From positions 1-45,653 of IMG/VR virus record IMGVR_UViG_3300044498_000033: a stretch of DNA of 45,653 nucleotides; one strand, 5' to 3'. Made by a program: the position numbers and the translations under genes. Below the pieces are notes generated by a model, which was given only the letters and a program-made list of their open reading frames with translations, was not told the origin of the DNA and ran no database searches. Source of the DNA: a virus. Numbering within the stretch: position 1 is the stretch's first letter; each line of letters opens with the position of its first letter. Below, one piece after another: positions 2,143 to 19,326 of the stretch.

Positions 2143-2388
2143 TCAGGCCCCCAAAATCTGCCACACCTTCGCGATGAACGACGGGATGAGCGCGAGCGCA
2201 ATCCCCTTGCCGATTTCCTTCGCCGAGCGCGTCGTGTCGAATGTGGCCTCGGGGTCGCCTAGCTTGTATTTCTTGAACGACTCCAGATCCTTCAGCACGT
2301 AGCTGCTCACCGTGCCGAAGGCGAGAATGATCTGGCTCTTCAGGAAGGGATGGGCTGCGAGCCAGTCGATGATCTGCTGCTCGGTCAC
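2143..2388 (-). CDS. Putative holin (81 aa, two hydrophobic segments)
   Basis: SQIILAFGTVSSYVL and GIALALIPSFIAKVWQILG; size and topology typical of class II holins; position just after the virion genes. Confidence 0.5.
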   Translation of the reverse strand: MTEQQIIDWLAAHPFLKSQIILAFGTVSSYVLKDLESFKKYKLGDPEATFDTTRSAKEIGKGIALALIPSFIAKVWQILGA

Positions 2389-2606
2389 AGCCGGTTCCTC
2401 ACGTCGTCAATGGAGCCTTGGAGTTTGTCAAGGCGGTTCAGATTCTCTTGGTGCCGCTCGTCGCTGCGCTTTTCGCGTTCGCGCTCGCGTTCTTCGATCG
2501 CCCCGACGCGGCGGTCCACCTTCCACACCCAACCAAACGCGGCGACCGCGAGCGCGGTGCCGGTGGCCACGACCTTCTCGGTGAGGTTGTCCATTAGGCT
2601 GTCCAT
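2385..2606 (-). CDS. Small membrane protein with charged coiled-coil tail (i-spanin-like or holin-associated)
   Basis: VVATGTALAVAAFGWVW TM followed by EEREREREKRSDERHQENL; 4-nt overlap with the next gene. Confidence 0.5.
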   Translation of the reverse strand: MDSLMDNLTEKVVATGTALAVAAFGWVWKVDRRVGAIEEREREREKRSDERHQENLNRLDKLQGSIDDVRNRL

Positions 2607-5944: not shown

Positions 5945-6891
5945 TACGCCTGCCCTCCGCCAAAGAGCCGCGACCAGTCCATGTTCCCCATCGCCGAGCC
6001 GATGCCGCCCCAGAGCGAAGCGTTCCGCTGATCGTTGGCGTAGCCCGACTGCTGCGACTGCCCGATGAGCTGCATGAGTCCGCTCATGAGCGACTGCGGA
6101 TTCGACATCCCGCCGCCCATGTTCAGGAGATTCATCGCCTGCCCGAGCCGCCGATCCTGGAGTTCAATCGGCAGGGTCAACATCTGCAGCATCTGCCCCG
6201 CGCGCTGGTTTTCGAGGTTCGCCATCGCCTGATGAATCTGCGCCGACTGGCCCATCCGCGCGTCGTTGATCTGCTGGGTCTGCGCCGCGATCTGCTGCAT
6301 CATCTGCGTGATGTTGGCCGCCATGCCCCGCTGGCGTTCCGTCTTGGCCGCGCCTTCGATCACGAGATCGCGCTCCGCCCCGGCTCGCGCCTGGTCCGCT
6401 GACGTGTTCACCTTCGACAAGGCGTCGGCAATCGTGCCGGACTTCTGCCCGTGGCCGAGTGAGGCCAGCGTCTGCTTCGCGCGGGTGAGTCCCGTATCGC
6501 GGTTCGATTCGATGCCCGTGAACGCCGCCGCCCGTCGCGCCGCATCTTCGGTCGCCGTGAACGCCGGCTTCTGCGCGTCCTCCAAGAGCTTCCGCAGCGT
6601 CGAGTTGATTTCTTCGCCAAACGGATTCTGCCAGCCGCCCTGAAAGTATCCCGCGATGTGCTCGAGGCCCGTCGGCCCCGCGTTCTGGCGGCTGTTGATG
6701 AAGTCCATCAGATTCGACAGGTACGGGTCGTTGCCGCCGCCGAAGGACTGGCCGCTGCCAAACGACGGCATGCCAATCGGCTGCGTGTACGCCATATCGC
6801 CGCCGCCCGATTGCGCGCCCGTGACGGACGGCATCGACCCGCCCCCAGAGACGGGGTACGGGTCGCCCTGATCCTCGTTCCACCAGGCCAT
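5944..6891 (-). CDS. Gly/Gln/Met-rich virion-associated protein (315 aa)
   Basis: Low-complexity G/Q/M-rich ends with a helical Q-rich core; coupled to its neighbours. Confidence 0.5.
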   Translation of the reverse strand: MAWWNEDQGDPYPVSGGGSMPSVTGAQSGGGDMAYTQPIGMPSFGSGQSFGGGNDPYLSNLMDFINSRQNAGPTGLEHIAGYFQGGWQNPFGEEINSTLRKLLEDAQKPAFTATEDAARRAAAFTGIESNRDTGLTRAKQTLASLGHGQKSGTIADALSKVNTSADQARAGAERDLVIEGAAKTERQRGMAANITQMMQQIAAQTQQINDARMGQSAQIHQAMANLENQRAGQMLQMLTLPIELQDRRLGQAMNLLNMGGGMSNPQSLMSGLMQLIGQSQQSGYANDQRNASLWGGIGSAMGNMDWSRLFGGGQA

Positions 6892-7231: not shown

Positions 7232-7591
7232 TTACACCTCAATCCCGACGCGAATCGTCGCGCCTTCGACCGAACTTGACAGATAGATAAACTCCGCATC
7301 GGCCGCCCGCGTCACCGTGAGCGGCACGATCGACACGCCGACGGTGTCGAGCGGCAACGACTGCAGATGCAGCGCATACGGCACTCGTCCGAGCCCATGA
7401 CGAATCACGAACTCGGTGTCGGCCGTCTCGTGCGTCTCGCCTTCGAGAAAGACAATCCCGTGATTGACCGACTGCCCCGACGCCCGGCCAAAGCGGAGCC
7501 CGCCATCGAGCACGGCCCGAAAGGCCCGCGCCAGTGACCCCTGCGGGTCCATCGCGCGCACGAGCGAAGCCACGTAGGCGGAGTCGGCCAT
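7232..7591 (-). CDS. Hypothetical tail-module protein (119 aa)
   Basis: ORF track; 1-nt overlap with the tail fibre gene stop. Confidence 0.55.
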   Translation of the reverse strand: MADSAYVASLVRAMDPQGSLARAFRAVLDGGLRFGRASGQSVNHGIVFLEGETHETADTEFVIRHGLGRVPYALHLQSLPLDTVGVSIVPLTVTRAADAEFIYLSSSVEGATIRVGIEV

Positions 7592-8685
7592 CAGCTCTGG
7601 AAAATCTGCCAGCGCGAGAGCGTGGCGTTATAGACGATTTCGAGGACGTGCCCCGGAATGATCGTCGTGTTCACCGTCGAGGCCGCAAAGCGATTCGCCG
7701 CCGTGGACCCGGCGTTGTCCGCCAACAAGATCACGTTGTCGGCGGAGCTCAGGTTGCTGATGAGCAACCGTGTGCCCGCCGGTTGCGCCGTGATGCCCGT
7801 GATGTTCGAGCCGCCCGCAAACGGCGTGCAGTCAATCTGCGCCGCCGTCGAAAGCCCCGTCGGGGCGAGGTTGTTATTGTCGCCCGTGGTCAGTGACGAC
7901 GTCGCCACGGCTGTGGTCCGGAACCCGCCATCGAGCCGCGTGTTCCCGGCATCGACCCAGACCGCATAGTTGGCGCCCGTCACCGTGGCCGTCATCGGGC
8001 CTTCGACGTAGAGCGCGGCCGTGTCCGTCACAGCGCCGCCCGCTCCCGTCACGGTCGGAATGGTGATCCGCGCCCCGGCCAGGAGCGCGTGCGTGCCGCT
8101 CCCCGCCTCCACGAGTGTGCCCGCCGTGCTGATGAGCGCCCCGACCGAGTTGGCCGGGACGTTGATCGTGGGCTGCACCGCGATCCCGAGCCCCGCGCCG
8201 ACGCCGGTAAACGTGCCGCCGATGTTGAGTAGCGCCCCGGTGGAGATCGCCGCGCCAAGGCCGAGCTGCGCGAACTGCGGCGTGCCCGATGTCGAGTAGT
8301 TCTGCGAGATCGTTACGTTGCCGGTAATCGCGAGCGTGCGGCTCGCGTCACCGAGCGTGACCTTGAGCGTTCGATTCGCGGCCAGCGCCTCGTCCAGCGT
8401 GATCGTGACGTAGTTATTGCCTTCGACGGACGATGGATACTCTTTGAGGCGGACTTCGATCGCCTGCGTGATGTACGCAAAGATCGTCAGCCAGCGGAGT
8501 GAATCTGATGTGCCGAGATCGTGCGTGTCCGTCGCGGTCGGCTTCAGGTCGTGCGCCAGCCCGTTCAGCAGCGCATTCTCGACCGCCGTCACTTCGCTTT
8601 GAATGTCGTTGACGTGCGCCGCTTCGATGACGTCACTCGTCACCTTGGTGGTGAACGTCTTGACTGCGCCGGGATAGTCCGCCAT
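7591..8685 (-). CDS. Tail fibre protein
   Basis: N-terminal IEAAHVNDIQSEVTAVENAL motif common to phage tail fibres; Gly/Thr/Ala-rich beta-type repeats downstream. Confidence 0.65.
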   Translation of the reverse strand: MADYPGAVKTFTTKVTSDVIEAAHVNDIQSEVTAVENALLNGLAHDLKPTATDTHDLGTSDSLRWLTIFAYITQAIEVRLKEYPSSVEGNNYVTITLDEALAANRTLKVTLGDASRTLAITGNVTISQNYSTSGTPQFAQLGLGAAISTGALLNIGGTFTGVGAGLGIAVQPTINVPANSVGALISTAGTLVEAGSGTHALLAGARITIPTVTGAGGAVTDTAALYVEGPMTATVTGANYAVWVDAGNTRLDGGFRTTAVATSSLTTGDNNNLAPTGLSTAAQIDCTPFAGGSNITGITAQPAGTRLLISNLSSADNVILLADNAGSTAANRFAASTVNTTIIPGHVLEIVYNATLSRWQIFQS

Positions 8686-10587
8686 CTAGACCCCTCGCTC
8701 CTCGGGCTCCGGCCGCCCGGTGATCCGGTAGCCAAACCACGTAAAGTCCGCTTGCCCCTCGTACTGCCCCTTGATTTGAATCGCCGTGCCCTCAGCCGTC
8801 ACGGGCAGATCGAAACAGACCGTCTGCCGCGAGGCCCCGCCGTAGGTGGCCGTGCCGTAGAGCGCCGTGCCGTACAGCGAGAGGCCCGACCCAATCGGGA
8901 CCGGAATGTTGCAGACCGTGATCCCATCGACTTTCACGTCGACGCCGAACGTGCCGTCACTCGGCCGGAACGTCATGCAGTAGCGGAGAAAGCGCCCGAC
9001 CACCGGCCCGAACGGCACAATCTCCGGGCCTTCGTAGTCCGTGATTTGATCGTCGCCGTCGGCCGACGTGCCGATGGATTCTTCCGTGATGATGTCCACG
9101 GTGGGCGACCAGCCGAAGCTGCGGCCGATGTTGCCGGCAATCGACTCCGGGCCGTCCCAGAAGATGTATCCGCCGATGGGCCGGTCGGTCGTGGCCCATG
9201 CGGGCGCGTCACCAGCATCGGCCCGTTCCAGGCTCAGCACGTATTCCCCGGCCGATCCATACGGCGGGAGAAACGGCACCGCGACTCGGAGTTCCTTGTC
9301 GCGGGCGTGATAGCCGAGCGGCAAGCGTGCAAGCTGCGCGCCCGAGGCCGTGCCGACCATCTCGCGCCATTCGTTCTCGAAGCCGAGCGAGATCAGCCGG
9401 TCGGAGTCACCAGACAGCACGCCCACGCCAGTCGGCCCAGCGTGCGCCACGCCGCCGGTTTCGAGTGCCGCCACCGCGCGAGGCCCAAAGGCCCCGTTCA
9501 TCACGCGGAGCGGCCGGACGACGAAATCCACCGGGGTTTGCGCGACCACGACGAACGCCGACGTGAGGCCGAAGATAATCGCCGTGTCGCCATCCACCAC
9601 GCCCGCGCGGATCTTGTCGCCTCTCGTGAACGGCAGTTCAATCGAGTACGTGACCGGCCAGTACTGCTGCTCAAAGACTTCCGTAAACCGCAAGACGCGC
9701 GGATCGTCCGGGTCCCAGCCCCACCATCGGTTCTTGAACACGAACGCGAACTCCAGCGCGGGCGCCACCGTGCGGAGCGTCGGCGCGGCTTCGGCCGACG
9801 ACCAGTTGTTCGTCGTGACGCTGACGGCCGCCGTGCCGCTGCCGGGATTGGCCACCTGTCCCGCAAAGCGGCGGATCGGCTCACCGGCCGTCACGTCGCG
9901 CACGTAGACGTAAATCTGATCGACCTGCGGATCAGCCGAGAAGGCGACTTCCGCCGTAAAGTTGAGATTCGGCGCGGCAATGGCAATCGTCGCTGTATCT
10001 GATTCATTCGACGTGATCCCCAGCCCGTCCTCATCGGCATAGGCCGACGAGACTTCGTAGGTGTGGGCGTCGATGAGCGAACCCGACGCCCCGCCAGCCG
10101 CGAGCGTCGGCGCGGCCACGGGCGGCGTGATGCCAAGCTGCGTCCACGAACCATTGGCGCCCGTCGTGGACTTGAGCGGCACGGTGACGCCATCAAGCAC
10201 CGCGACCAGTTCCGCATCGTGCGGAAAGTAGACCTCGGCCTGCGAGTCAATTGACGGCGACGGGACCACCGTGTGCGCCGATGCCGTACCTCCGATGTCG
10301 GCGATGGTGGACACGCGCGTGGTGCCGATCTTGGCCGCCAGCGTAAACGGCGTCACGCCGTCGAGATAGATGCGCGCCCCGCCCCGCACGGCCCCTGTGC
10401 CGCCCGACTGGTTGAACGCCGTACACCACGCCTCCCAGCCCGCCCGCGGCATCCACGCGCCCCGACTGGACGGATCGACATTCCGCAGCCGCCGCGCCTG
10501 ATTCGGGCGGATCATCGACGCCGCATCCCGGCGGTTCAATCCGCCCGTGAGATCCTGCACGTCCATCGCCACCTTCGGCACCGGCAC
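8686..10587 (-). CDS. Tail tubular protein B / nozzle-like protein (633 aa)
   Basis: Size and position (after the adaptor-like gene, before the fibre) as in T7-like gene order; N-terminus DLTGGLNRRDAASMIRPNQARRLRNVD. Confidence 0.45.
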   Translation of the reverse strand: MPVPKVAMDVQDLTGGLNRRDAASMIRPNQARRLRNVDPSSRGAWMPRAGWEAWCTAFNQSGGTGAVRGGARIYLDGVTPFTLAAKIGTTRVSTIADIGGTASAHTVVPSPSIDSQAEVYFPHDAELVAVLDGVTVPLKSTTGANGSWTQLGITPPVAAPTLAAGGASGSLIDAHTYEVSSAYADEDGLGITSNESDTATIAIAAPNLNFTAEVAFSADPQVDQIYVYVRDVTAGEPIRRFAGQVANPGSGTAAVSVTTNNWSSAEAAPTLRTVAPALEFAFVFKNRWWGWDPDDPRVLRFTEVFEQQYWPVTYSIELPFTRGDKIRAGVVDGDTAIIFGLTSAFVVVAQTPVDFVVRPLRVMNGAFGPRAVAALETGGVAHAGPTGVGVLSGDSDRLISLGFENEWREMVGTASGAQLARLPLGYHARDKELRVAVPFLPPYGSAGEYVLSLERADAGDAPAWATTDRPIGGYIFWDGPESIAGNIGRSFGWSPTVDIITEESIGTSADGDDQITDYEGPEIVPFGPVVGRFLRYCMTFRPSDGTFGVDVKVDGITVCNIPVPIGSGLSLYGTALYGTATYGGASRQTVCFDLPVTAEGTAIQIKGQYEGQADFTWFGYRITGRPEPEERGV

Positions 10588-10816: not shown

Positions 10817-10957
10817 TCACGACGCCACCGCCACGGTCGGAGCCGGCGCAATAATCGCCACTTTCGCCGCCCCGCACGTCGGGCACTTCACCGCCGGCTT
10901 GGTCTCTTTCACCGGGAACACATGCCCGCAGCGATAGCGAATCTGGATGAGGCTCAT
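10817..10957 (-). CDS. 46-aa zinc-ribbon mini-protein (not in the ORF track)
   Basis: Manual translation MSLIQIRYRCGHVFPVKETKPAVKCPTCGAAKVAIIAPAPTVAVAS; its ATG overlaps the TGA of 10954..11727 (ATGA); it fills an otherwise empty gap. Confidence 0.5.
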   Translation of the reverse strand: MSLIQIRYRCGHVFPVKETKPAVKCPTCGAAKVAIIAPAPTVAVAS

Positions 10958-11727
10958 ACCGTGTCCTCATAGCCAGAGCCGGCCCCACGACTGACACCGA
11001 CGCGGTTGTAGGGGTGTTCCTTGAACGTGACCTGCCGGCCGCCCACGGGCCGGTTCTTGTCGCGGTAGTCGAGCACCCGCTGTTGGGCCAGCCCCATGAA
11101 GTACTGCGACCGCTCGATGTCCTTCCGGAGCAGTTCGAGCTTCGACGCCGCGTAATGGACGAGCGCGTCATGCCACGGAATCAGAATGGCCAAGGCATCG
11201 CCATCGACCGTGAACGGTTCGTCGGCGTCGGCCACCATCGGTTCCGGCTTGACGGCATAGGGCAAGAGAGCGGTCCAGGTGTCCCCGCCCGAGATATCCG
11301 GGGCCGGAGTCATGCCCCAGAACCGCTCTCCGCCTTCTGTGCGCTCGTACCACTCACACGGTCGGCCATCGGCCGCCGTGCGCCAGCCGGGGCTGTTCGC
11401 GTCCAGCCAGGCGAGAGTGCGGCGCGTGAAGTCTTTCCCCGCGTAGAACGTCGTCGTCGAACCCGAGACGATCTTGACGCGCACGCCCTGCGGCACGAGC
11501 CACAGGAAATCCTCGTCGGCGATCTCCGTCTCCAGGTCGTATTCGTCCGTGCTGTCCACGAGCGTGATCGAGGCCGTGCGCACGAGGCAACTCGTCTGCT
11601 CGGCAAACCACCGCTGCCCGCGATTGATCGCGCTCTTGCGTCGGGCGGTCGTGAAAATCAGGGAGGTATCCGACGAGGACAACGCCTCGGTCAGTTCCTC
11701 CCCGTACAGCTCCAGAAACGTGGCCAC
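10954..11727 (-). CDS. Tail tubular protein A / head-tail adaptor-like protein (257 aa)
   Basis: Position immediately before the 633-aa nozzle-like gene; no specific catalytic motif. Confidence 0.4.
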   Translation of the reverse strand: MATFLELYGEELTEALSSSDTSLIFTTARRKSAINRGQRWFAEQTSCLVRTASITLVDSTDEYDLETEIADEDFLWLVPQGVRVKIVSGSTTTFYAGKDFTRRTLAWLDANSPGWRTAADGRPCEWYERTEGGERFWGMTPAPDISGGDTWTALLPYAVKPEPMVADADEPFTVDGDALAILIPWHDALVHYAASKLELLRKDIERSQYFMGLAQQRVLDYRDKNRPVGGRQVTFKEHPYNRVGVSRGAGSGYEDTV

Positions 11728-11973
11728 TTACTTGCCTTTCTCCCGATCCTTGAACGCCTTAATCTCGTCCTGTACTTGCTTGGCGCGATTGGCGAGATCG
11801 ATCCGTTCCCGATTCGGTTCGTAGTAGTAGACGTAGAGGCTGCGTCCGTACCACACGCCATGCACCAGCCGAGAGGCGTAGAGGCCCCACGCGAGAAGTC
11901 CCACCACGGCCCCGCCCACGATCCACTTCTGCTTCGGCGAAAACGCCGCCCACCACGTCTTGAGTCCTGTCAT
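11728..11973 (-). CDS. Possible independently initiated 81-aa membrane protein nested in frame at the 3' end of 11728..13713
   Basis: ATG 11973 preceded by GAAGGGGGAGCA (strong SD); MTGLKTWW..WIVGGAVVGLLAWGLYA TM then a charged tail. Confidence 0.45.
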   Translation of the reverse strand: MTGLKTWWAAFSPKQKWIVGGAVVGLLAWGLYASRLVHGVWYGRSLYVYYYEPNRERIDLANRAKQVQDEIKAFKDREKGK

Positions 11974-13713
11974 TGCTCCCCCTTCGGAATGAATCTGGCG
12001 GACTTGGCCGCGAGCGCGCGGAAGGGTGCGTTCAAGAAACGACACCGGCGCCGCGCGAGCGCGCGGAAGGGTGCGTTCAAGAAACGACACCGGCGCCGCG
12101 CGAGCGCGCGGAAGGGTGCGTTCAAGAAACGACACCGGCGCCGGAGCGCCAGGCATCGGCAGATTTGTGCGCGGGATGCGAATCAGGAACGCGTCCATAT
12201 AGCCGGTCCAGTGATTGCTGACGAGGTAGTACCAGCGCCCATCGCTGCTGATGTTCGGCTTCGGCCCCTTGTAGTAAAAGTTTTCCGCCTCGTTGCCGCC
12301 AGTGCCGTCTGCTGTCACGTCGGTCATTTGCGGCGCCACGACCAGCACGGTCGGATCGCCCGGCCGGAAGCAGACCAGCTCACGCTCGCGCGGGATCGGG
12401 GTGCCGGGTGCCGACTCGCTCTGAATGTTCGTGTGGCACATCTGCTGATTGGCAATGGCCGTTGTCCCAGCCGGAACCGCTGTGTTCCATGACGGCTGAC
12501 CAAAGCCGTTCGCGATGCTCATGGTGTAGCTGAAGATTTGATCACCACCACCAGCGACGTCCGAGAGATCCCAGAGCTTCAGGACTTCAAACCCCGCCGC
12601 ATCGTTGTCCGAGAACACCGCGAACCCGTGCCCGTAGGCGAGATGCCCCGGCGCACCTGACGGATGAGAGCCGCCCTGGAAGTCGCAGATGAAGTGCTCG
12701 GTTCCCGGCGTGTCGAGCCGGAAGATGTAGTAGTCGATGCCGGAAGAAGCCGGGCAGCCGGATAACGCTTCGGCTCCGTTGCCGCCATAAGTGCCACTCA
12801 AATCCATGTGCGGGTCGCCGCCGAACGGCTTGGCGATCCAGGTGTCGGCCGCCGTCATCCAGATATTCGCGACATCAGCCCCAGAGAGGTCTTTGACGGT
12901 CGCGGAAAACTTGGTCCCGGTGGCATCCGTGTGCGGCGACCAGATCTTGACGTCGTTGAGGTAGTCCGCCGCAGCCCCGCCGGCCACGCCTGCGATCGCT
13001 GTGCGGGCCGCGAGGGAATTGACGCTGCCCACGATCACGCAGTCGATGCCGTCTGTTGACGAGATCGGCAACGACGCGGTGCCCGCCCCGGTGTTGCAGC
13101 GAAGGAACTCCCACAAGTGGCCTTCTCCGCCCTTCACGTAGATCGTGTGCGGTTCGCTCGGGTTCAGGCTGGTCTGCCAGCTATCACTCGCGCTGTTCAC
13201 GTCCTCAAGCGGGTCGCCGTTCTCGAACATTTTGACCCACGGGCTGACTGTTCGCGTGGAGACGGTGACGTAGCCTTTGTGAACACCGAGATTGCCGAAG
13301 CTGTTCCAATACTCGACGACATCGTGCCCGTCACCGGACGGCGCCCCCTGGTTGAAGATGTTCATCCAGTTGTCGGAATACCCCGTCTGTCGGATGCAGC
13401 CCGTCGCCGCAAGCCCTGAGTTGTGGCAGTCCTGCCCGACCGCATCGGCGCCGAGCGTCAACCGAAAGGCGTCGGTGTTGTACGGCGCCGGAAACCTGAA
13501 CGCGGCCCGCGTGACCGGCAGATACGTGGACGGGTTGGTCTCGTCTTGGTCGCGCACGTCGGTGTCGGTGTATTCCTCGGTAAAGCCGCCCTGCGTGTCG
13601 CTGAACGCGAACTCACCGCCGCCGACCCCAGGCTTGCAGCACTTCTGATCTGACGGCATCCACGCGAGCGACACCGCGACGGCTATCGTGATCAGCACTG
13701 CCTTATCGCGCAC
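11728..13713 (-). CDS. Signal-peptide-bearing beta-propeller-like protein (661-aa ORF as written, including a 3x15-aa repeat and a TM tail)
   Basis: N-terminus MRDKAVLITIAVAVSLAW; repeated G/D/W-rich beta-type segments (SDGRWYYLVSNHW); open frame runs through the tandem repeat. Confidence 0.6.
   Translation of the reverse strand: MRDKAVLITIAVAVSLAWMPSDQKCCKPGVGGGEFAFSDTQGGFTEEYTDTDVRDQDETNPSTYLPVTRAAFRFPAPYNTDAFRLTLGADAVGQDCHNSGLAATGCIRQTGYSDNWMNIFNQGAPSGDGHDVVEYWNSFGNLGVHKGYVTVSTRTVSPWVKMFENGDPLEDVNSASDSWQTSLNPSEPHTIYVKGGEGHLWEFLRCNTGAGTASLPISSTDGIDCVIVGSVNSLAARTAIAGVAGGAAADYLNDVKIWSPHTDATGTKFSATVKDLSGADVANIWMTAADTWIAKPFGGDPHMDLSGTYGGNGAEALSGCPASSGIDYYIFRLDTPGTEHFICDFQGGSHPSGAPGHLAYGHGFAVFSDNDAAGFEVLKLWDLSDVAGGGDQIFSYTMSIANGFGQPSWNTAVPAGTTAIANQQMCHTNIQSESAPGTPIPRERELVCFRPGDPTVLVVAPQMTDVTADGTGGNEAENFYYKGPKPNISSDGRWYYLVSNHWTGYMDAFLIRIPRTNLPMPGAPAPVSFLERTLPRARAAPVSFLERTLPRARAAPVSFLERTLPRARGQVRQIHSEGGAMTGLKTWWAAFSPKQKWIVGGAVVGLLAWGLYASRLVHGVWYGRSLYVYYYEPNRERIDLANRAKQVQDEIKAFKDREKGK
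12009..12143. repeat. Perfect tandem repeat, 3 x 45 bp
   Basis: The unit cgagcgcgcggaagggtgcgttcaagaaacgacaccggcgccgcg is repeated at 12011, 12056 and 12101 without mismatch; it encodes APVSFLERTLPRARA x3 on the minus strand. Confidence 0.95.
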
Positions 13714-14524
13714 GCCGCACCAGTTGCACGAGCCGCGGCCCGAACGGATGCTGCGTCATCGAGAGGAGGAGCGGCAGGCCACCGCCGCCACGCGGACGCA
13801 CGGTGGCCGGGAGCGGAGACGGCGCCGCGCCGCCAGCGGCCTCATTCAACGCCACGACCGCGCTCAGCGTCACCGCGCTCGCCATCGTCCAATTAAGCGT
13901 GTGGCTTCCGGCCCCTGTCGCCCGCTTGTCCTGCACGTTCACCAAAAACCCGGCGGCTGATGTGGCTTCCCATCGCTCCGTCGGGGAGCCGGCGCCGCCG
14001 ATGGTCGGATCTTGGTTCGTGACCAGTGCCCCGTAAATCAGCGCGGCTCCGCTGGTGTCCACCGCGGGCGTGGTCGTGGTCGTGACGCCTGATTCTGTTT
14101 CCGTGTCCGAGTCGGCGACACAGGACGAATCGGCAAGGCCGCTGTACTCGTCCACGCGGATGATGTCGCCCACAGCCCCGCCGGTGCCGTGCGTCACCGT
14201 CACGGCCGTTGACCCGCCCACGGAGTTGCACACAAACGCCACGCACAGCCGGGCCGTCGTCGCGAGGTTCAGATTGACCGTGGATTCAAACGTGTCCGAC
14301 TGATTACTGGTCGGCGTGCCGCACCCGACGCCAACAGCCGAGTCGCCCGTGACGACCCACACCGTGCCGAACGAGTTCCCAGCCGTGACTGTGATGGCGC
14401 TCGACACCCACGGATCGGGGTCGTTCGTGACGGACGTGGATGTTTCGAGGTAGGCGTAGTCGGCCAGCAGCACGACCGTCGCCGCGAAGATCGCGACGAG
14501 CGCGAGGCTGGCCCTTCGGCGCAT
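13703..14524 (-). CDS. Signal-peptide-bearing beta-sandwich (lectin/LamG-like?) protein, 273 aa
   Basis: Start reassigned to ATG 14522-14524 (TAATG overlap with the upstream stop); MRRRASLALVAIFAATVVLLA; Thr/Gly/Val-rich beta-type sequence. Confidence 0.6.
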   Translation of the reverse strand: MRRRASLALVAIFAATVVLLADYAYLETSTSVTNDPDPWVSSAITVTAGNSFGTVWVVTGDSAVGVGCGTPTSNQSDTFESTVNLNLATTARLCVAFVCNSVGGSTAVTVTHGTGGAVGDIIRVDEYSGLADSSCVADSDTETESGVTTTTTPAVDTSGAALIYGALVTNQDPTIGGAGSPTERWEATSAAGFLVNVQDKRATGAGSHTLNWTMASAVTLSAVVALNEAAGGAAPSPLPATVRPRGGGGLPLLLSMTQHPFGPRLVQLVRRAR

Positions 14525-16395
14525 TACTGCGCTCTCCGATAGATGAACGTGATCGCCCCGAGCTGCACGTCCGCGTCGAGGGTGTCGCCCGAGGTCGTGC
14601 GATTCCGGTTCACCCGGAAATACATCTGTTCGCCGGCCGCGCATCCGGTCGTATCGAGCGTCGTGACGGCGGTGTCGTTGAGCTGCAGCGTGGTCCCCAG
14701 GTTCGCGTCGGCCGCGAACACCGTCTCGGCCCAGACCACATCGGTGAGGGCTTGACCCGCCGCGACACAGCCAATGTTGACGCGCCACACGACGTTATTG
14801 GTCGTCGTGCTGATCGCGCGCCAGTGGATCTGCGCGGCGAAGGTGCCGGTAAAGCCGGTCGGGACGCGGCCCCAATACTGATGCCACTCGGTTTCAATGT
14901 CGCTGTCGCCCTCGAACGTCGCAAACCCCGTCGCGATATCGACACCGACCGCCGTGGATTCACAGACCGCAACAGGAGGTACCGTCGTCGCCGTGTTCCC
15001 GCCGAGGGTCGCCGTCGTGTTCTGGCAGACCGCCACCGGGAACGACACCTCATGTGTAGTCGTAATGACGTTGCCGGTCCCTTCCACGTCCAGCGTCTTG
15101 TTGGTGAGGGTCGCCGTGCCGTTCGGGGTCGTGATGCCGTCCGAGGCGTTCGTGTTCGTCGCCAGCGCCGTGAACACGCCCGTGCCTTCGCCTGTCACCG
15201 CAGTTCCCAGGTTGCCGATGGACGGCGTGACGAGCCAGGTCGCCACTCCAGCATCCGGCGTCACGAAGGTTTCGAGGATGTCCCGGATCGCGTCCATGCA
15301 CGGCACGGCCTCCGAACCGTTCCAGCCCGTCGCGTCGTAGGCCGTGCAGGGGACTTCCAGGTTGATCGCGCCGAAGTCGATGATGCCCACGCTCGTGGAG
15401 GACGACACCCCCACTTCGTTCGATGTGTCGTCGAAGTTGAAGATCAGGTTTTCGTCTGATCCTGTGCTGTTGCCGGTGATGATGAGGGCGCCGTCGCCGT
15501 CGTCGTCGATGAACACGCCCGCTGAGCCAAGCTGAATCCTGACGCCGGCCGCGAGCTGCGACACCTGAAAGTCGGTCGTCGGCGTGCCGTCTTTATCCCC
15601 GACAAACTGCGCATAGATGACGTTCACGTCCGCGCCGTCGTTATGCGACAGCTTCAACAGGATCGTGTTATTGGCCGCGTCCGCGTCCGTATCGCTGATT
15701 TCAATGACCGCCGCCGCCGCATCGAGCGTGGAGAGCCAGATGTGCGTGGTGTTCGTCAGCGCCACCGAGCCATTGCCGGACGGGTCGGCCAGATCGTCAA
15801 ACTCCGTCGTCCCGCCGGTGTCGTTGTCGTTCTCGCAGAGCCACGTATCGGTGTCGTCGTCAAACTTGACTGTCTGGTTGTCCGTGCAGGTATCCGAGTC
15901 CAGAATCGCAATGAACTTGACGATGGCCGCGCCGTCGAACCCAATAAAAGCACCCGTCGTGCCCCAGCGGTTCGTATCGAGCGCAATCTCACCGGCCGCG
16001 TTGACCGTGGGCGCTGCGGCCTGCGGAATCGCGATCGACCCCGTAAACACCGGATCGACCGAGAACACGAGCGCCCCGGCCGTGCCGGTCTCGTCGTCCA
16101 TGATGGCCGCGAGTTCCGCCGACGCGTCGAAGTCGTCGGTAGACGCCGAGCCGCAACCCAGCCCCGTACACGTGCCGTCCTCGGCCACCGTGAACACGGC
16201 CACGCCATCCGAGCCCTGCAGCTCGAAGATCGGGCCAGTCGAGGTCTGCTTGATCGTGACGGCGGCCCGTGTGCCCGTCGTGGACGTGGCGAGCGACTGC
16301 CCGCCGCTCTGCAGCACCCACGTCCCGTTCTGCGCGACAACAACCGTGGCTGAGGCGATAAAGAGGCCGAGCAGGAACGCCTTGACTCGTGCCAT
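14524..16395 (-). CDS. Signal-peptide-bearing large Thr/Asp/Gly-rich protein, 623 aa (fibre- or adhesin-like)
   Basis: Start reassigned to ATG 16393-16395, 2 nt after the upstream stop; MARVKAFLLGLFIASATVVVAQ; acidic DxD-rich and T/G-rich beta-type repeats. Confidence 0.6.
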   Translation of the reverse strand: MARVKAFLLGLFIASATVVVAQNGTWVLQSGGQSLATSTTGTRAAVTIKQTSTGPIFELQGSDGVAVFTVAEDGTCTGLGCGSASTDDFDASAELAAIMDDETGTAGALVFSVDPVFTGSIAIPQAAAPTVNAAGEIALDTNRWGTTGAFIGFDGAAIVKFIAILDSDTCTDNQTVKFDDDTDTWLCENDNDTGGTTEFDDLADPSGNGSVALTNTTHIWLSTLDAAAAVIEISDTDADAANNTILLKLSHNDGADVNVIYAQFVGDKDGTPTTDFQVSQLAAGVRIQLGSAGVFIDDDGDGALIITGNSTGSDENLIFNFDDTSNEVGVSSSTSVGIIDFGAINLEVPCTAYDATGWNGSEAVPCMDAIRDILETFVTPDAGVATWLVTPSIGNLGTAVTGEGTGVFTALATNTNASDGITTPNGTATLTNKTLDVEGTGNVITTTHEVSFPVAVCQNTTATLGGNTATTVPPVAVCESTAVGVDIATGFATFEGDSDIETEWHQYWGRVPTGFTGTFAAQIHWRAISTTTNNVVWRVNIGCVAAGQALTDVVWAETVFAADANLGTTLQLNDTAVTTLDTTGCAAGEQMYFRVNRNRTTSGDTLDADVQLGAITFIYRRAQ

Positions 16396-16397: not shown

Positions 16398-16724
16398 CTA
16401 CACCGCCACAATCACGACCGTGACCGTCGGCGAGGCGCCGCCGGAGATCGTCGTGGTGATACGCGCCCGGACCGCCAAGACCCCGCCAGCCGCTTGCGCG
16501 AGTGTCGCGCAGCCGCCATTGACGAAGCTCAGCGTGCCAATCGGCGCCCACGTGCCGGCGTAGCTGGTCGAGGGCGCTTCCTCAATCGTGACGACGCCGG
16601 CCGAGACATCCGCCGCAAACGTGGCGTAGGCCCGAAGCGACCGCATCACGCCGCCCAGATCCACCGCCGTCCCGGTGCCCGTGGCGACCGCGTTCAGCTG
16701 CAGGCTTTTTGTTTCGAGTGTCAT
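16398..16724 (-). CDS. Small beta-rich hypothetical protein (108 aa)
   Basis: Start reassigned to ATG 16722-16724, an ATGA overlap with the glycosyltransferase stop. Confidence 0.55.
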   Translation of the reverse strand: MTLETKSLQLNAVATGTGTAVDLGGVMRSLRAYATFAADVSAGVVTIEEAPSTSYAGTWAPIGTLSFVNGGCATLAQAAGGVLAVRARITTTISGGASPTVTVVIVAV

Positions 16725-17407
16725 ACCGTCGCCGGCTCCTTGACCGGTTGGCGCATCTGTTCGGCGTCGGCAAGCGACACCATCCGGTAGGCATCGACCC
16801 GCCCGGCTTCCGGCGTGATCGCGCACGTCATGATGTGGGGCAGCGGCAGATCGAGATCGACCAGCACCTCAAACCCAGCCGCCCGCGCATTCACGCAAAA
16901 CGACAAGTCCTCGGCCACGTCGCGTGGGTCGAACTGCCCCGCCCGGCACCAGGGCCGATCCATCGCGGTCCAGACGTCGCGGCGGATGAGCATGCAGCCC
17001 ATCCCGACGCCGTCCACCTTCACGAGCCCGTCGTTGACGTCAAACAATCCCTGCGCGGACGGCGCCGAGATCGGCCGCCACTTCCGCTGTTCGATGTGGA
17101 GAAACGCCGTCGAGTAGTGCGGAGGGCGTCTGGTGTAGTAGTGGGCCGAGACGATGGGCCGGTTTCGCGCCAGGAGCCGCGTCAGCACATCCTTCGGCAA
17201 AATATGATCGTCATCGACCGTCAAGAGCGCATCGGCGCCCGACTGGTCGGCCAGATCGAACAGGTTGTTCCGCTGCGTGACGATGTACGTCCCTTCGCAC
17301 GCCAGCCTGACAATGGTCACGTCAGCAGGACGCTCTAACGCATAGAGTTGCTGCCAGAACTTCGCGTAGCCTTGCGCCCGATGCGGAATCCCAATCGCGA
17401 TAATCAC
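16721..17407 (-). CDS. GT-A fold, family-2-like glycosyltransferase
   Basis: LLTVDDDHILP (DxD), VDGVGMGCMLIRRDVW, AEDLSFC; no TM segment. Confidence 0.65.
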   Translation of the reverse strand: MIIAIGIPHRAQGYAKFWQQLYALERPADVTIVRLACEGTYIVTQRNNLFDLADQSGADALLTVDDDHILPKDVLTRLLARNRPIVSAHYYTRRPPHYSTAFLHIEQRKWRPISAPSAQGLFDVNDGLVKVDGVGMGCMLIRRDVWTAMDRPWCRAGQFDPRDVAEDLSFCVNARAAGFEVLVDLDLPLPHIMTCAITPEAGRVDAYRMVSLADAEQMRQPVKEPATV

Positions 17408-17973
17408 GAGGCCCCCCTGAATCGTGCGACCCCAACCCCTCGGGGCGTCTCAAATAGCGTCCACGGCGTGATCACGCCGTCATCGACCAGCTTCTGCATG
17501 TCGTGGATGAGTTGCGCATGGCCCGGATACCCGCACGGCGTCGTGTCATGGAGCACCACCACCGCCTTGTTACTCGCCCACGTGGCGAAGTACCGGATCT
17601 CCGGCCCGCGCAACACGAACTCGGAATCGGCGAACACGAGATCCACCGGCCCATCTGGCACATACGTGAGCGAGGACGCCGCCCAGACCGTCATCGGGAG
17701 GCCATTGGCCCGCGCCTGCACGCTGTCTGCTCGCGCCGGCACCGGCTCACACGTCACAAGCCGCCCGCGGCCTTCCGCCTTCAGCGCCTCAGCGATGGCC
17801 ACGGCCGTATCGCCCAGGTAACTGCCGGTCTCAATCACCAGATCCGGTTTCACCATCGCGACGAGCGCGGCGATCCAACTCGTGACCGCTGTTTCCGTCG
17901 CGTAGTCGTCGCGAGCGGCCCATCGCTCGGGTTCCGGACAGGCCGGCCGGCGATGGACCGTCTCGCGACGCAT
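17404..17973 (-). CDS. Class I SAM-dependent methyltransferase (O-methyltransferase / Methyltransf_24-like)
   Basis: DLVIETGSYLGDTAVAIAEAL (motif I), RLVTCE, VDLVFADS. Confidence 0.65.
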   Translation of the reverse strand: MRRETVHRRPACPEPERWAARDDYATETAVTSWIAALVAMVKPDLVIETGSYLGDTAVAIAEALKAEGRGRLVTCEPVPARADSVQARANGLPMTVWAASSLTYVPDGPVDLVFADSEFVLRGPEIRYFATWASNKAVVVLHDTTPCGYPGHAQLIHDMQKLVDDGVITPWTLFETPRGVGVARFRGAS

Positions 17974-18408: not shown

Positions 18409-19326
18409 TTAGGCTCCGGGCGAACCGACCACACCCTGGTACTGGATCGCGCCCCACGACTGCCGGAAGCCGGCCGAGTACAGCCGGTTCTTCGAGCGGT
18501 CCACCGTGACCGGCGCATCCATCGCAACCGCCTTGCGGACAATCGTCAGGAGGCCGTGCATCTGGTTCTTCGCCACGATGCGCCACGAGTCGGTGTCGGC
18601 GATGTACGGGTTCACCACCACGTCGATCTGGTAGTTCGCCTTGATCGCGTTGATGTCGTTGTCGGCCGAGCCGTTGATGTTCGTGCTCTTGACGATGCGG
18701 GTCGCCAGGAACTCCAGCGCGGGCGGGACTTCGAGGAACCAGCCCGAGGGCGGCTCCATAAAGAAGCCTTCGGCCGACTTGCCGTCCGTTCGGGCTAAGG
18801 TCAGCGCCGTTTCCAGCGCCGTGCGGGACAGGTCCGCCGAGACCAGATTCGACGCCGTGCCGCCGGTCAGGACCACATGCGAGGCCGAGTAGATCGGCTG
18901 GCCGTCGGGGGTCGTTTCCACGCCGCCCGAGAAGCCCTGGCCAATCAGCCGCGCCGCGTACGTCTCCTGCGCCACCCGCAAGGCCATCCGCAGACCCCGC
19001 GCGTAGTTCTTGATCACGCTGAACTCGTCGTCATCGGCCGCCTCTTCCGTTACCTCGAAGCCCAGACGCCACTTGAGGTGGGTCAGATCCTTCGGGGAGC
19101 CCGGCGTGAGGTTCTGGGTTGTGAGGTCGTCACCTTCCGAGAGCGGGCTGGGTGACGTAAACGCCGCGTAGTCCTGGTATCGCTCGAACTTGCGCGTGGA
19201 CGTCTCGGTCCGGAAATACTTCTTCCAGATCGGCGGGATGTCCTTGAGGGTCTCTTCTGCGACCGAGAATACGACCTTATCTACGTTGTCGTATAAACCC
19301 GGAAAAGTGCCGCGTGCTTGGGCCAT
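18409..19326 (-). CDS. Major capsid protein (HK97-fold type)
   Basis: 305 aa, downstream of the scaffold; pattern RKFERYQ..LGFEVTEEAADDDEF..NPYI typical of phage major head proteins. Confidence 0.7.
   Translation of the reverse strand: MAQARGTFPGLYDNVDKVVFSVAEETLKDIPPIWKKYFRTETSTRKFERYQDYAAFTSPSPLSEGDDLTTQNLTPGSPKDLTHLKWRLGFEVTEEAADDDEFSVIKNYARGLRMALRVAQETYAARLIGQGFSGGVETTPDGQPIYSASHVVLTGGTASNLVSADLSRTALETALTLARTDGKSAEGFFMEPPSGWFLEVPPALEFLATRIVKSTNINGSADNDINAIKANYQIDVVVNPYIADTDSWRIVAKNQMHGLLTIVRKAVAMDAPVTVDRSKNRLYSAGFRQSWGAIQYQGVVGSPGA

Follow-up and report, generated by a model that had tools for sequence, protein, structure and literature searches.

A recurrent late-operon cassette of probably exported fibre-, sandwich- and propeller-type proteins in an uncultivated tailed phage

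The window considered here is the whole stretch of DNA analysed (45,653 nucleotides, IMG/VR record IMGVR_UViG_3300044498_000033), derived from an uncultivated tailed phage. Three neighbouring late genes on its minus strand, named p1, p2 and p3, are flanked by the major capsid gene on one side and by an adaptor gene and a nozzle-like gene on the other. Their location between capsid and tail-tubular-like genes, as proposed by a sequence-only reading of the same DNA, is therefore correct. The genes of this region are the following:

18409-19326: major capsid gene (Phage_capsid_4)
17404-17973, minus strand: Methyltransf_24 methyltransferase (Pfam and PHROG matches)
16721-17407, minus strand: GT2 glycosyltransferase (Pfam and PHROG matches)
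16398-16724, minus strand: small protein without signal peptide, directly upstream of p1
14524-16395, minus strand: p1, 623-aa fibre-like protein with signal peptide
13703-14524, minus strand: p2, 273-aa beta-sandwich protein with signal peptide
11728-13713, minus strand: ORF of p3, 661 aa
10954-11727, minus strand: SU10-type head-tail adaptor (Pfam SU10_adaptor, E 5e-14), immediately downstream of p3
8686-10587: nozzle-like gene
7591-8685, minus strand: 364-aa protein without signal peptide, candidate conventional tail fibre

From the small upstream ORF through to the adaptor, five genes follow one another at spacings of 2, -1, -11 and 0 nt, and the translational coupling that had been claimed for this operon is indeed found. 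The ATG of p1 (16395) lies 2 nt past the upstream stop. The ATG of p2 (14524) overlaps the TAA of p1 (TAATG) and is preceded by the Shine-Dalgarno sequence GGAGAG, while the GTG of p3 (13713) lies within an 11-nt overlap with the end of p2. The GTG of the adaptor gene directly abuts the p3 TAA. The public JGI gene calls agree on the lengths of 623, 273 and 661 aa. In-frame alternative starts exist in p1 (GTG at codon 27) and in p3 (GTG 13698 and ATG 13659). Stop/start coupling and a good Shine-Dalgarno sequence pin down the starts of p1 and p2; the p3 start is less certain than either.

The small upstream protein comprises 108 aa when read from the ATG of its ORF, or 142 aa from a GTG at 16826. 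It has a weak PHROG match to 'major tail protein', and its homologue in a related locus (L004) is situated between cassette and adaptor. The GT2 and Methyltransf_24 genes sit between the capsid genes and p1-p3, and their tie to the latter is positional only. Besides p1-p3, a conventional podovirus structural set is present: portal, capsid, adaptor, nozzle-like protein and the 364-aa fibre candidate, whose C-terminal third is weakly similar to an annotated 'tail fiber protein' of uncultured phages. The scanned window ORFs yielded no integrase.

The N-termini of p1-p3 agree with those quoted in the sequence-only reading. All three proteins start with a basic segment, followed by a hydrophobic core of 13-16 residues and a cleavage-type site with small residues at -3 and -1 (VVA/Q in p1, LLA/D in p2 and SLA/W in p3). 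Based on manual rules and comparative evidence, the signal peptides were assigned as follows:

16333-16395, minus strand: p1, residues 1-21, MARVKAFLLGLFIASATVVVA, followed by Q (continuing QNGT)
14462-14524, minus strand: p2, residues 1-21, MRRRASLALVAIFAATVVLLA, followed by DY
13663-13713, minus strand: p3, residues 1-17, MRDKAVLITIAVAVSLA, followed by WMP

Such N-termini are rare elsewhere in the window. In a scan of its 57 ORFs, only four proteins reach a 12-residue Kyte-Doolittle maximum of at least 2.4 within the first 35 residues, and three of these are p1-p3. Likewise, a rule-based test for signal-peptide likeness flags p1-p3 and 3 of the 54 other window proteins. The cores are too short for a stable transmembrane (TM) helix. 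The same type of N-terminus is found in almost all full-length homologues, even though these segments are non-homologous in sequence, and this conservation of type argues against start-codon artefacts. Nearly all full-length members among the 26 p1 homologues are signal-peptide-like, most with an (A/G/S)/Q junction after the hydrophobic core. In the p3 family all full-length homologues are signal-like, including bacterial chromosomal ones at 25-30 % identity, and in P0029 the hydrophobic N-terminus is conserved at the sequence level ('...GAASLALMPLKQTRCC'). Among the 24 p2 homologues (alignment A3), 14 of the 21 full-length members carry a signal and the other 7 begin exactly at the domain core. 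This core starts with AFVQS, or MAIAFVQS in distant homologues without the segment, so that the signal is a clean add-on. Of the three cleavage sites that of p1 is the most canonical, and in the p2 and p3 families homologues with Ala-X-Ala-type sites are found.

The cysteines show a corresponding pattern. Their numbers (10 in p1, 4 in p2 and 10 in p3) are all even, and they are arranged as close pairs along the sequence. Between 0 and 2 cysteines are found in each of the major capsid protein, the scaffold-region proteins, the 364-aa fibre candidate (one cysteine) and the 315-, 480- and 580-aa proteins. The cysteine-free proteins of the structural set, which have no family match, would be internal proteins. 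Counting homologues with both, one or none of two cysteines, p3 pairs are gained and lost together (C206-C225 and C320-C343, each 6/0/7; C426-C448, 12/0/1), as is C543-C585 of p1 (14/0/1). Of the p2 homologues, 10 of the 14 that carry a signal peptide have the pair C99-C135, and none of the 7 that lack one. In 34 IMG/VR loci the median cysteine content is 1.53 % for signal-like proteins versus 0.66 % (p = 7e-8), and an even number is seen in 70 % versus 36 %. Given signals kept across diverged homologues alongside co-varying cysteine pairs, p1, p2 and p3 are probably exported, as far as can be judged from sequence, and the earlier proposal of genuine export signals has held up well.

In p1, the signal peptide is followed by a modular stalk and then by a conserved C-terminal domain of about 190 aa (14527-15096, minus strand; alignments A4 and A5). 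The protein has no sequence match in Pfam, PHROG, NCBIfam or PDB. Its modules, however, also occur in cyanophage virion structural proteins supported by mass spectrometry. The protein is fibre-like; an adhesin-like body had first been suspected. The region after the signal is unconserved even in comparison to P0002 and P0003, whose phage has an adaptor of the same type. The C-terminal domain, present in 37 IMG/VR viral contigs, has four conserved cysteines (C457, C478, C543 and C585). These are kept in two proteins (L099 and L116) that appear to have no signal peptide.

For p2, the AF2 model (pLDDT 81) gives a beta-sandwich whose C-terminal tail, of the PLPAxIxPxRGGG type, is disordered. The sandwich that had been expected is thus found, but not the LamG likeness: a structure search with this model returned no significant PDB match, and instead many phage 'minor tail proteins' in BFVD (TM-score normalised to the target about 0.4-0.77). 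The predicted fold is of the phage type annotated as minor tail or receptor-binding protein.

The third protein was correctly recognised as a propeller. Its AF2 model (pLDDT 66, pTM 0.71), which is only moderately confident, is of the seven-bladed type, and the best Foldseek match is the PL22 oligogalacturonate lyase (3c5m/3pe7, E 2e-7). This match is at the fold level only (8-10 % identity), and p3 has no family-level sequence match. Its bacterial homologues are secreted multi-domain proteins in exopolysaccharide (EPS) loci of Nitrospira and Acidobacteriota, next to GT2, GT1, AlgX-like, AsnB-like and heparinase II/III genes. The core shared with them starts about 20 residues past the signal peptide, leaving p3 without an extra N-terminal domain. 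In both the p2 and the p3 model the N-terminal helix lies outside the folded domain at low confidence. The notion that the 661-aa ORF encodes one natural protein had to be abandoned, as close homologues measure 543-549 aa. The ORF can be subdivided as follows:

12144-13713, minus strand: p3 proper, about 523 aa up to the repeat, propeller with signal peptide
12009-12143: perfect 3.0 x 45-bp tandem repeat (Tandem Repeats Finder, 100 % matches) at the p3 3' end
11728-11973, minus strand: 81-aa single-TM ORF, in frame with p3 in this assembly

The repeat keeps frame 0 of p3 open, so that it runs into the TM ORF, which has its own strong Shine-Dalgarno sequence (GGGGGAG) and ATG (11973). Read in the +1 frame, p3 regains a C-terminus like that of its homologues and ends in a TGA overlapping this ATG. 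Judging from these reading frames, the 661-aa ORF appears to be a frameshift fusion of a propeller protein of about 545 aa with a downstream small TM gene, and the 81-aa ORF is probably a separate gene.

The arrangement is not the podovirus oddity it was taken for. A block in which a signal-bearing fibre is joined by other signal-bearing proteins, here called the cassette, recurs in dozens of other uncultivated phages with different backbones. At cassette positions (0 to +3), 69 of 123 ORFs are signal-like versus 23 of 302 elsewhere (Fisher p = 5e-26). The cassette occupies different late-region sites, head-proximal or tail-distal, in podovirus-type as well as siphovirus-type genomes, and this shifting recurrence is the behaviour of an accessory module. 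In many phages it takes the place where tail fibres are classically encoded, immediately upstream of the lysis genes (endolysin and holin). Many partner proteins elsewhere pass directly from the signal peptide to a beta-helix cap motif. In the five loci read in detail (the window, L001, L003, L004 and L007) a small TM protein follows the cassette (69-87 aa in the last four), and a small protein without signal peptide often precedes it.

It is tentatively proposed, with slightly less than even confidence, that p1-p3 form a Sec-exported, disulfide-bonded module with a non-virion role on envelope polysaccharide late in infection. As a mobile accessory cassette of the late operon, they would be made together with the virion proteins, pass the Sec translocon via cleavable SPase-I-type signal peptides and fold oxidatively outside the cytoplasm. 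There, p1 and p2 may bind the envelope or matrix polysaccharide of the infected cell, while the propeller of p3, presumably derived from the bacterial family of secreted EPS-locus proteins, may cut or modify it. Receptor or matrix material would thereby be cleared or destroyed, and the progeny would escape instead of being trapped. A non-virion role is favoured by the conventional structural set that exists besides p1-p3, and a polysaccharide-acting p3 by the PL22 fold and the EPS-locus homologues. Moreover, the short lead-in of p3, the unconserved post-signal region of p1 and the partners with a beta-helix cap directly after the signal leave no room for a virion anchor. Several observations point the other way. 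The p1 modules and the p2 fold are of the virion receptor-binding type, L099 and L116 keep the four cysteines apparently without a signal, and fibres ranging from 600 to more than 2000 aa seem oversized if clearing were their only task. The coupling to structural genes and the tail-fibre position elsewhere fit virion components equally well. Furthermore, a signal peptide alone carries no protein across the outer membrane, so that in a diderm host the surface polysaccharide could only be reached via a further step.

The same receptor-binding resemblance and operon location would be expected if p1-p3 were true virion appendages (head or tail fibres, adhesin and enzyme), exported, oxidised in the periplasm and mounted at holin opening or after lysis. 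The conserved disulfide pairs would then provide a rationale for periplasmic folding, the small proteins before and after the cassette could be staging or docking factors, and the common C-terminal tails of p2-type proteins could be docking peptides. Nevertheless, this is unlikely. We know of no exported protein of a tailed phage that is later mounted on virions, and no precedent for tailed phages was found in the literature searched. Very little time passes from the opening of the membrane to dispersal, neither p1 nor p3 revealed a conserved virion-attachment domain, the phage already has its signal-less 364-aa fibre candidate, and alternating head-proximal and tail-distal sites are unusual for a part docking at one specific place. 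More doubtful still is that the N-termini stay uncleaved as signal anchors, or act as releasable anchors of the SAR type, and hold the proteins at the inner membrane on its periplasmic side, serving superinfection exclusion, receptor masking or release on membrane depolarisation at lysis. Ala, Gly, Ser and Thr make up about 40-46 % of the cores, as in SAR domains, the p2 and p3 sites are the less canonical ones, and p3 is joined to a C-terminal TM segment in this assembly. Cor, Llp and HK97 gp15 are known examples of exported exclusion proteins whose genes lie near tail genes. The cores are, however, shorter than typical anchors, the (A/G/S)/Q junctions and Ala-X-Ala-type sites point to SPase I cleavage, and p1-p3 have no paralogy to the phage's own fibre, so that they would not mask the same receptor.

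It is very improbable that the N-termini are no export signals at all, but result from mis-assigned starts or are helices with a structural, cytoplasmic function in ordinary fibre proteins (for trimerisation, or embedded in the virion). The in-frame alternative starts and the two family members without the segment would agree with this. Against it stand the n-h-c pattern, which dozens of homologues show despite unrelated sequences and independently made gene calls, the plainly secreted bacterial homologues of p3, the tracking of signal and cysteine pair in the p2 family, the helices left outside the folded domains, and the coupled starts of p1 and p2. Hardly more credible is a lysogenic-conversion moron set, in which secreted adhesins and enzymes expressed from the prophage would alter the host surface or biofilm behaviour. 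Late regions are well known to carry secreted morons (lom and bor), and the related cassette-bearing phage L001 has an integrase. In Porphyromonas gingivalis prophages, genes of unknown function with SPase-I signal peptides were noted earlier, and those with Q-rule signal peptides were interpreted as lysogenic conversion (PMC10367356). The gene spacing in the window, however, leaves no room for own promoters or terminators, so that expression should follow the late operon, and the scanned window ORFs are without an integrase.

The nearest solved structure to the p3 propeller is a PL22 polysaccharide lyase, and p1 has its modules in common with cyanophage virion structural proteins. The signals on these fibre-, lectin- and sugar-cleaving-enzyme-like proteins, and the recurrence of the block, suggest that these phages may route proteins of the receptor-binding type into the host envelope, either in place of mounting them on the particle or ahead of doing so.

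The window is a complete JGI contig of 45,653 bp. It has a G+C content of about 65 %, and its minus strand holds nearly all genes. Judged by family searches, it is a tailed phage with SU10-type parts. The features needed here are listed below; those other than p1, p2 and p3 were assigned by family search.

Features of the late region
24839-26326, large terminase
22722-24749, SU10-type portal
18409-19326, major capsid protein
17404-17973, minus strand, CmcI-like methyltransferase
16721-17407, minus strand, GT2 glycosyltransferase
14524-16395, minus strand, p1, fibre-like protein of 623 aa
13703-14524, minus strand, p2, beta-sandwich protein of 273 aa
11728-13713, minus strand, p3, ORF of 661 aa (propeller part proper, 12144-13713)
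10954-11727, SU10-type adaptor
1849-2142, holin-like protein of the lysis cassette
1236-1664, DUF5675 protein of the lysis cassette

The sequence-only reading had described p1, p2 and p3 (together, the cassette) as translationally coupled late genes lying between capsid and tail genes. This layout was borne out: the capsid block is found on one side and the adaptor on the other, and the starts and stops overlap or nearly do so. The p1 ATG lies 2 nt past the preceding stop, the p2 ATG (Shine-Dalgarno, GGAGAG) overlaps the p1 TAA, the p3 GTG overlaps the end of p2 by 11 nt, and the adaptor GTG abuts the p3 TAA. Five consecutive genes, from a small upstream ORF to the adaptor, thus have starts and stops that overlap or lie 0-2 nt apart. 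The late operon ends in a lysis-type cassette (1233-2606, minus strand) encoding three small TM proteins of 73, 81 and 98 aa and the DUF5675 protein, which is probably the muralytic enzyme; the 98-aa protein is weakly Phage_holin_6_1-like. For the 364-, 315-, 480- and 580-aa proteins of the window, Pfam and PHROG gave nothing usable. Outside the late region, a 484-aa protein (38803-40257, minus strand) combines the N- and C-terminal domains of a 5'-3' exonuclease with a weak RecT-like C-terminal segment, and two HNH endonuclease genes lie near it (36223-37023 and 37818-38390).

The N-termini quoted for p1, p2 and p3 were found again on all three sequences. Signal calls were rule-based and made by inspection, with comparative support from homologues. 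The n-regions MARVK (p1), MRRRAS (p2) and MRDK (p3) have net charges of +2, +3 and +1, as expected for Sec signals, and lead into uncharged hydrophobic stretches of 16, 15 and 13 residues (c-region included) that fit an h-region and are too short for a TM helix. The 12-residue Kyte-Doolittle maxima of the three are 2.4-3.0; a maximum of at least 2.4 within the first 35 residues occurs in 4 of the 57 window proteins, three of which are p1, p2 and p3. The rule-based test flags these three and 3 of the 54 other window proteins, one of them a holin-like TM protein. By inspection, small residues occupy positions -3 and -1 (VVA/Q in p1, LLA/D in p2, SLA/W in p3), in agreement with a c-region; the predicted cleavage sites are A21/Q22, A21/D22 and A17/W18. 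No Cys follows any of the h-regions, and lipoprotein signals were considered unlikely for want of a lipobox. Tat targeting is unlikely, since the RRR of p2 departs from the S/T-R-R-x-F-L-K pattern and the p2 homologues have no RR. A fourth signal-peptide-like protein (144 aa, MRAIRIGLVVLLTLAQCVSVQ..., 44046-44480, minus strand) is encoded at the early/regulatory end of the genome; it had no Pfam or PHROG match.

The homologues suggest that these N-termini are a conserved, functional property of the three families. Among the 26 p1 homologues, nearly every full-length member opens with an unrelated yet typical signal sequence, and most of these end in Ala, Gly or Ser followed by Gln. In the p3 family, all full-length homologues have a signal-like N-terminus, including the phage proteins (56-61 % identity) and also the bacterial chromosomal ones (25-30 % identity; Acidobacteriota, Nitrospira, Gammaproteobacteria). 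The p2 family was found by an exhaustive HMMER scan (24 homologues), where a word-indexed search had returned p2 alone. In its alignment, 14 members have the hydrophobic N-terminal extension and 7 distant members open exactly at the core "MAIAFVQS"; the signal is thus an add-on to a folded domain. An alternative ATG at p3 codon 19, just past the predicted cleavage site, is common to p3 and its homologue P0029 but not conserved in the others, and raises the possibility of dual-start use.

Folding outside the cytoplasm would also be indicated, independently, by the cysteines. There are 10, 4 and 10 of them in p1, p2 and p3, arranged in closely spaced sequential pairs. The proteins set against these have 0-2: the capsid protein, proteins of the scaffold region, the fibre candidate of 364 aa, and the 315-, 480- and 580-aa proteins encoded downstream. 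In the alignments, the two members of a pair co-vary and are gained or lost together.

Co-variation of cysteine pairs (number of aligned sequences with both, one or neither cysteine)
p3 C206-C225: both 6, one 0, neither 7
p3 C320-C343: both 6, one 0, neither 7
p3 C426-C448: both 12, one 0, neither 1
p1 C457-C478: both 12, one 1, neither 2
p1 C543-C585: both 14, one 0, neither 1

The pair C99-C135 of the p2 family is present in 10 of the 14 members with a signal peptide and in 0 of the 7 without one. The same trend was observed for proteins of at least 200 aa at the IMG/VR loci described below, where the median Cys content was 1.53 % for signal-like proteins vs 0.66 % for the rest (p = 7e-8) and an even, non-zero Cys count was found in 70 % vs 36 %. 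Beside its cysteine-paired fibre proteins, a distantly related cassette-bearing phage (L006) encodes, notably, an Erv1/Alr-family sulfhydryl oxidase (6003-6557). In large eukaryotic DNA viruses, the Erv1/Alr sulfhydryl oxidase makes disulfide bonds in the cytoplasm.

The propeller fold that had been proposed for p3 was recovered by AF2 with moderate confidence (pLDDT 66, pTM 0.71). The best Foldseek match of the model is the PL22 oligogalacturonate lyase (PDB 3c5m and 3pe7; E 1.7e-7, about 2e-7; TM-score 0.59 on the target), and TolB, Photorhabdus (PLL) lectins and DPP-IV propellers follow with nearly as good matches. The likeness to PL22 is at the fold level only, with a sequence identity of 8-10 %; p3 had no Pfam, PHROG, NCBIfam or PDB-profile match and was not placed in the PL22 sequence family by any of these. 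PL22 enzymes feature a Mn-binding His/His/His/Gln site and a catalytic Arg. In the p3 family, a metal site could be made up of His, Gln, Asp and Glu residues that do not vary, and H261, H357, Q423 and R450 are among its invariant residues. For this secreted propeller family as a whole, no Pfam model was found with the searches made.

The core that p3 shares with its bacterial homologues begins straight after the signal peptide, leaving no phage-specific anchoring domain. These homologues contain several domains, with Big_7, fn3 or LamG_3 modules of the sort usual in secreted proteins. The nearest are from Acidobacteriota (about 28 % identity), which makes Vicinamibacterales and Polarisedimenticolia candidate hosts. 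In Nitrospira moscoviensis (L079, 9842-11287) the homologue lies between a LuxR-type response regulator and genes for a GT2, an AlgX-like SGNH protein and DUF5989. In an Acidobacteriota MAG (L013, 9872-12373) it lies between a LuxR-type regulator and genes for a GT2, a GT1, an AsnB-type amidotransferase and a heparinase II/III-like lyase. In both, the p3 homologue is directly downstream of the regulator, and the surroundings of these two loci are suggestive of exopolysaccharide-type gene clusters.

The 661-aa ORF of p3 exists as described, although its length reflects a frameshift fusion or an assembly artefact and not one natural protein. At the 3' end of p3 there is a perfect 3.0 x 45-bp tandem repeat (12009-12143), past which the ORF runs in frame into an 81-aa single-TM ORF (11728-11973, minus strand) with a strong SD/ATG of its own. 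The +1 frame of p3 encodes a homologue-like C-terminus, and its TGA overlaps the ATG of the 81-aa ORF. From these two observations, the junction looks like a 1-nt frameshift fusion, whether real or an artefact of assembly. If real, it would make p3 a type I membrane protein. RNA structure in the tandem repeat was considered as a recoding signal and rejected (z = -1.7, not notable). The 81-aa TM ORF had no Pfam or PHROG match; a role as holin or spanin was rejected, as it matched no such family and the lysis cassette of the window is elsewhere. In L001, a 46-kb phage, the equivalent small gene heads the lysis region.

p1 resembles phage fibres by its modules, and p2 receptor-binding proteins by its fold. 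p1 had no match in Pfam, PHROGs or NCBIfam and no significant PDB sequence match. Fibre modules of its relatives recur in "virion structural proteins" of cyanophages, for example in S-PM2 p177, which has no signal peptide. What is conserved across the p1 family is the C-terminal domain (about 190 residues, four conserved cysteines), and the stretch past the signal peptide varies, even in comparison with P0002 and P0003, the homologues from a phage with the same adaptor type. No conserved N-terminal virion-attachment domain was found in p1 or p3. A trimeric autotransporter adhesin was considered for p1 and rejected: there is no Pfam match, the four-cysteine domain ends in ...RRAQ, and a YadA-type C-terminal beta-barrel anchor with a terminal aromatic residue was not found. 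In profile-profile comparison, this domain was unrelated to p2, the signal peptides alone being aligned.

For p2, likewise without a match in Pfam, PHROGs or NCBIfam, a confident model (pLDDT 81) shows an all-beta sandwich that is followed by a disordered tail at the C-terminus. p2 had been called LamG-like, a label that is unsupported as a specific assignment because Foldseek against the PDB returned generic beta-sandwich noise without a significant neighbour (best E 0.03). Among predicted viral structures the fold has many neighbours, including "minor tail proteins" of mycobacteriophages and Gordonia phages. The disordered tail is common to several small beta-sandwich proteins of such cassettes and contains the motif P-L-P-A-x-I-x-P-x-R-G-G-G followed by a basic end (window 13703-13830, the p2 C-terminus; L003 2152-3491; L004 2184-2876; L001 8659-10004). 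A function in docking or sorting is possible for this peptide, whose architecture matched neither GlyGly-CTERM nor PEP-CTERM.

The cassette recurs in other uncultivated phages. Since the full-length p1 alignment has no conserved block, the p1 C-terminal domain was used to scan IMG/VR, which yielded 37 viral contigs and 34 usable loci.

Cassette organization on related contigs (sizes in aa; SP, signal-peptide-like)
L003: 688 (SP), 197 (SP), 249 (SP), 547 (SP), 69-aa TM
L004: 694 (SP), 230 (SP), 596 (SP), 42, 86-aa TM, 105, SU10 adaptor
L005: p1-like, 286 (SP), 522 (SP)
L001/L002 (46-kb phage with integrase): 147 (SP), 565 (SP), 191, 257 (SP), 543 (SP), 87-aa TM, then lysis region
L006: 146, 600 (SP), 674 (SP)
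L007 (Phage_portal_2, HK97-type capsid, tape measure protein): capsid, 129, methyltransferases/GT1, 136, 1059 (SP), 824 (SP), 74-aa TM

Locus statistics over the 34 loci were derived from uniform crude ORF calls, with the same procedure for cassette and background ORFs. The p1-like ORF was signal-like in 23 of the 34 loci, several of the remaining ones being truncated or having mis-called starts. The three ORFs after it were signal-like in 45-59 % of cases vs 3-9 % for distant ORFs. Overall, 69 of 123 cassette ORFs were signal-like vs 23 of 302 others (odds ratio 15.5, p = 5e-26). In many downstream partners, the signal peptide is directly followed by a beta-helix cap motif. Some cassette loci have a low G+C content. 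In the window, L007 and L120, the capsid genes lie on one side of the cassette and the head-tail genes on the other; in L001, L104, L107, L111 and L117 it comes past the tail genes or directly before endolysin and holin genes. By its distribution over these sites, it is a recurrent and mobile element of the late region. At two loci (L099, 1492-3681; L116, 3622-7377), a fibre apparently without a signal peptide carries the p1 C-terminal domain and keeps each of its four cysteines, while the downstream partners still have a signal peptide, which makes them a useful contrast for virion versus exported readings. Neither the window region nor p1, p2 or p3 had a match among GenBank phages by megablast and tblastn, and no cultured relative is present in that collection.

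The GT2 glycosyltransferase and CmcI-like methyltransferase genes (16721-17973, minus strand) sit between the capsid genes and the cassette. A glycosyltransferase/methyltransferase set non-homologous to that of the window also precedes the cassette in L007 (5051-9601), and in L096 (6715-9219) two ORFs with N-termini that look GT2-like lie ahead of it. Glycosylation of virion or exported proteins, or glycan modification, is possible. The association is positional at best, since tblastn gave no homologous partner across the cassette loci.

The most economical reading, and one we hold to be probable, is that p1, p2 and p3 would be exported by Sec, processed by signal peptidase I (SPase I) and folded with disulfide bonds. 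As to what they do outside the cytoplasm, we tentatively favour a role as accessory proteins acting on the envelope late in infection, giving it somewhat short of an even chance. p1 and p2 would then bind envelope or matrix polysaccharide, which p3 would cut or modify. This reading is preferred because p3 has no phage-specific anchor and appears to descend from proteins encoded in exopolysaccharide loci, because p1 has no conserved N-terminal attachment region, because the cassette behaves as a portable accessory block, and because the structural genes of the window look like a full SU10-like set; one of them encodes a fibre candidate that has no signal peptide and to which no paralogue ties p1, p2 or p3. 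The idea of a decoy, in which a copy of the phage's own fibre would be exported, was rejected for the same lack of paralogues among the window proteins, and a lysis role in view of the separate lysis cassette.

The main rival, which we consider rather unlikely as a whole, is that the three proteins are virion appendages. A widespread group of tailed phages would then send fibre, adhesin and depolymerase, as the parts that bind the receptor, through the Sec system of the host for disulfide folding in the periplasm, and these parts would join the cytoplasmically built capsids or tails only once the inner membrane is opened by the holin. For such appendages speak the position in the operon, folds of the receptor-binding type, and the fact that the cassette often occupies the fibre slot; the lack of a precedent and the very short time for mixing argue against them. 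Three further explanations are less likely. Against uncleaved or SAR-type anchors serving exclusion stand the hydrophobic stretches of p1, p2 and p3, shorter than typical anchors, and the junction of Ala, Gly or Ser with Gln in the p1 family, which points to SPase I cleavage. A start-codon or structural-helix artefact would have to be set beside the AF2 models of p2 and p3, which put the N-terminal helices outside the folded domains, with low confidence. Against conversion genes expressed from a prophage, the p1-p3 region, where genes overlap or lie 0-2 nt apart, leaves no space for promoters and terminators of their own as in morons.

Textbook morphogenesis of tailed phages is wholly cytoplasmic, and to our knowledge the phage proteins described as exported to date either act in lysis or are small and serve conversion or exclusion. 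In the present case, large receptor-binding- and depolymerase-type folds with conserved export signals and disulfide signatures form a portable set in dozens of uncultivated phages of different lineages. If they are free exported enzymes and adhesins, these phages would, ahead of their release, remodel or destroy polysaccharide of the envelope or matrix from the inside. Receptor-destroying enzymes would then have a bacterial analogue, with a bearing on how phages leave EPS-rich soil biofilms and on where to look for depolymerases. Should they instead belong to the virion, a new two-compartment assembly pathway without precedent in Caudoviricetes would be implied. Under either reading, pipelines that name such genes "tail fibre" by position may mislabel them, and the cassette is a defined, testable gene set.

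Phage proteins known to use Sec include Sec-dependent and SAR endolysins, spanins, Lom, Bor, Cor and Llp. In the literature, no direct precedent for tail fibres bearing signal peptides was found; one that an eCIS paper seemed to offer proved to be an item of its reference list, about cargo signals. Nor did the literature search return any account of a late operon with a conserved cassette in which large proteins resembling fibres, adhesins or depolymerases all have signal peptides. The N-termini themselves resemble Sec/SPase I signals, including the Q-rule class of Bacteroidetes (Bochtler et al. 2018, PMC5837995), in their basic n-region, 13-16-residue h-region and small -3/-1 residues. Gln at +1 is shared with that class by p1 and most of its family, unlike p2 and p3, and the 65 % G+C of the window is unlike typical Bacteroidetes. 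The signals also differ in their setting, as they occur here, with predicted cleavage, on large late-operon proteins with fibre- or receptor-binding-type folds. Genes of unknown function with predicted Q-rule SPase I signal peptides occur in Porphyromonas gingivalis prophages, which were read as having adapted in this way to secretion by their host (Matrishin et al. 2023, PMC10367356). Those are individual genes in one host species, whereas here a multi-gene cassette is found across many backbones, a comparison of organization and not of homology. Here, moreover, the proteins are large and receptor-binding-like, with fold assignments and disulfide evidence.

Exported or exclusion proteins encoded in or near tail-gene regions include Lom and Bor of lambda, Cor of phi80/N15, Llp of T5 and gp15 of HK97. 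Like p1, p2 and p3, they have signal peptides or TM segments and lie among late or tail genes, and they act in the host envelope. They are, however, single and small, most of them lipoproteins or proteins of the outer membrane, and in the lysogen their transcription is often independent, in contrast to the three to five large, coupled, non-lipoprotein, fibre- or enzyme-like proteins of the cassette. The endolysins P1 Lyz (SAR) and fOg44 Lys44 are likewise late proteins that use the host Sec system, accumulating outside the cytoplasm before lysis. These are peptidoglycan hydrolases from within the lysis cassette, whereas p1, p2 and p3 have no muralytic domain and the window's lysis cassette is separate. 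The PL22 oligogalacturonate lyases share the beta-propeller with p3 as its best structural match, but they are cytoplasmic in enterobacteria and the p3 family is predicted to be secreted. Fibres, tailspikes and branched depolymerase systems (T7 gp17, CBA120 TSPs, G7C gp63.1/gp66) are similar in having consecutive genes for a modular fibre, a small partner and a polysaccharide-cleaving-type fold, a likeness that extends to the p1 modules in cyanophage virion proteins and the p2 fold in minor tail proteins. Known fibres and spikes, however, have no signal peptide, as in S-PM2 p177, and combine a conserved N-terminal attachment domain with variable C-termini, whereas the p1 family has a conserved C-terminus and a signal peptide at its N-terminus.
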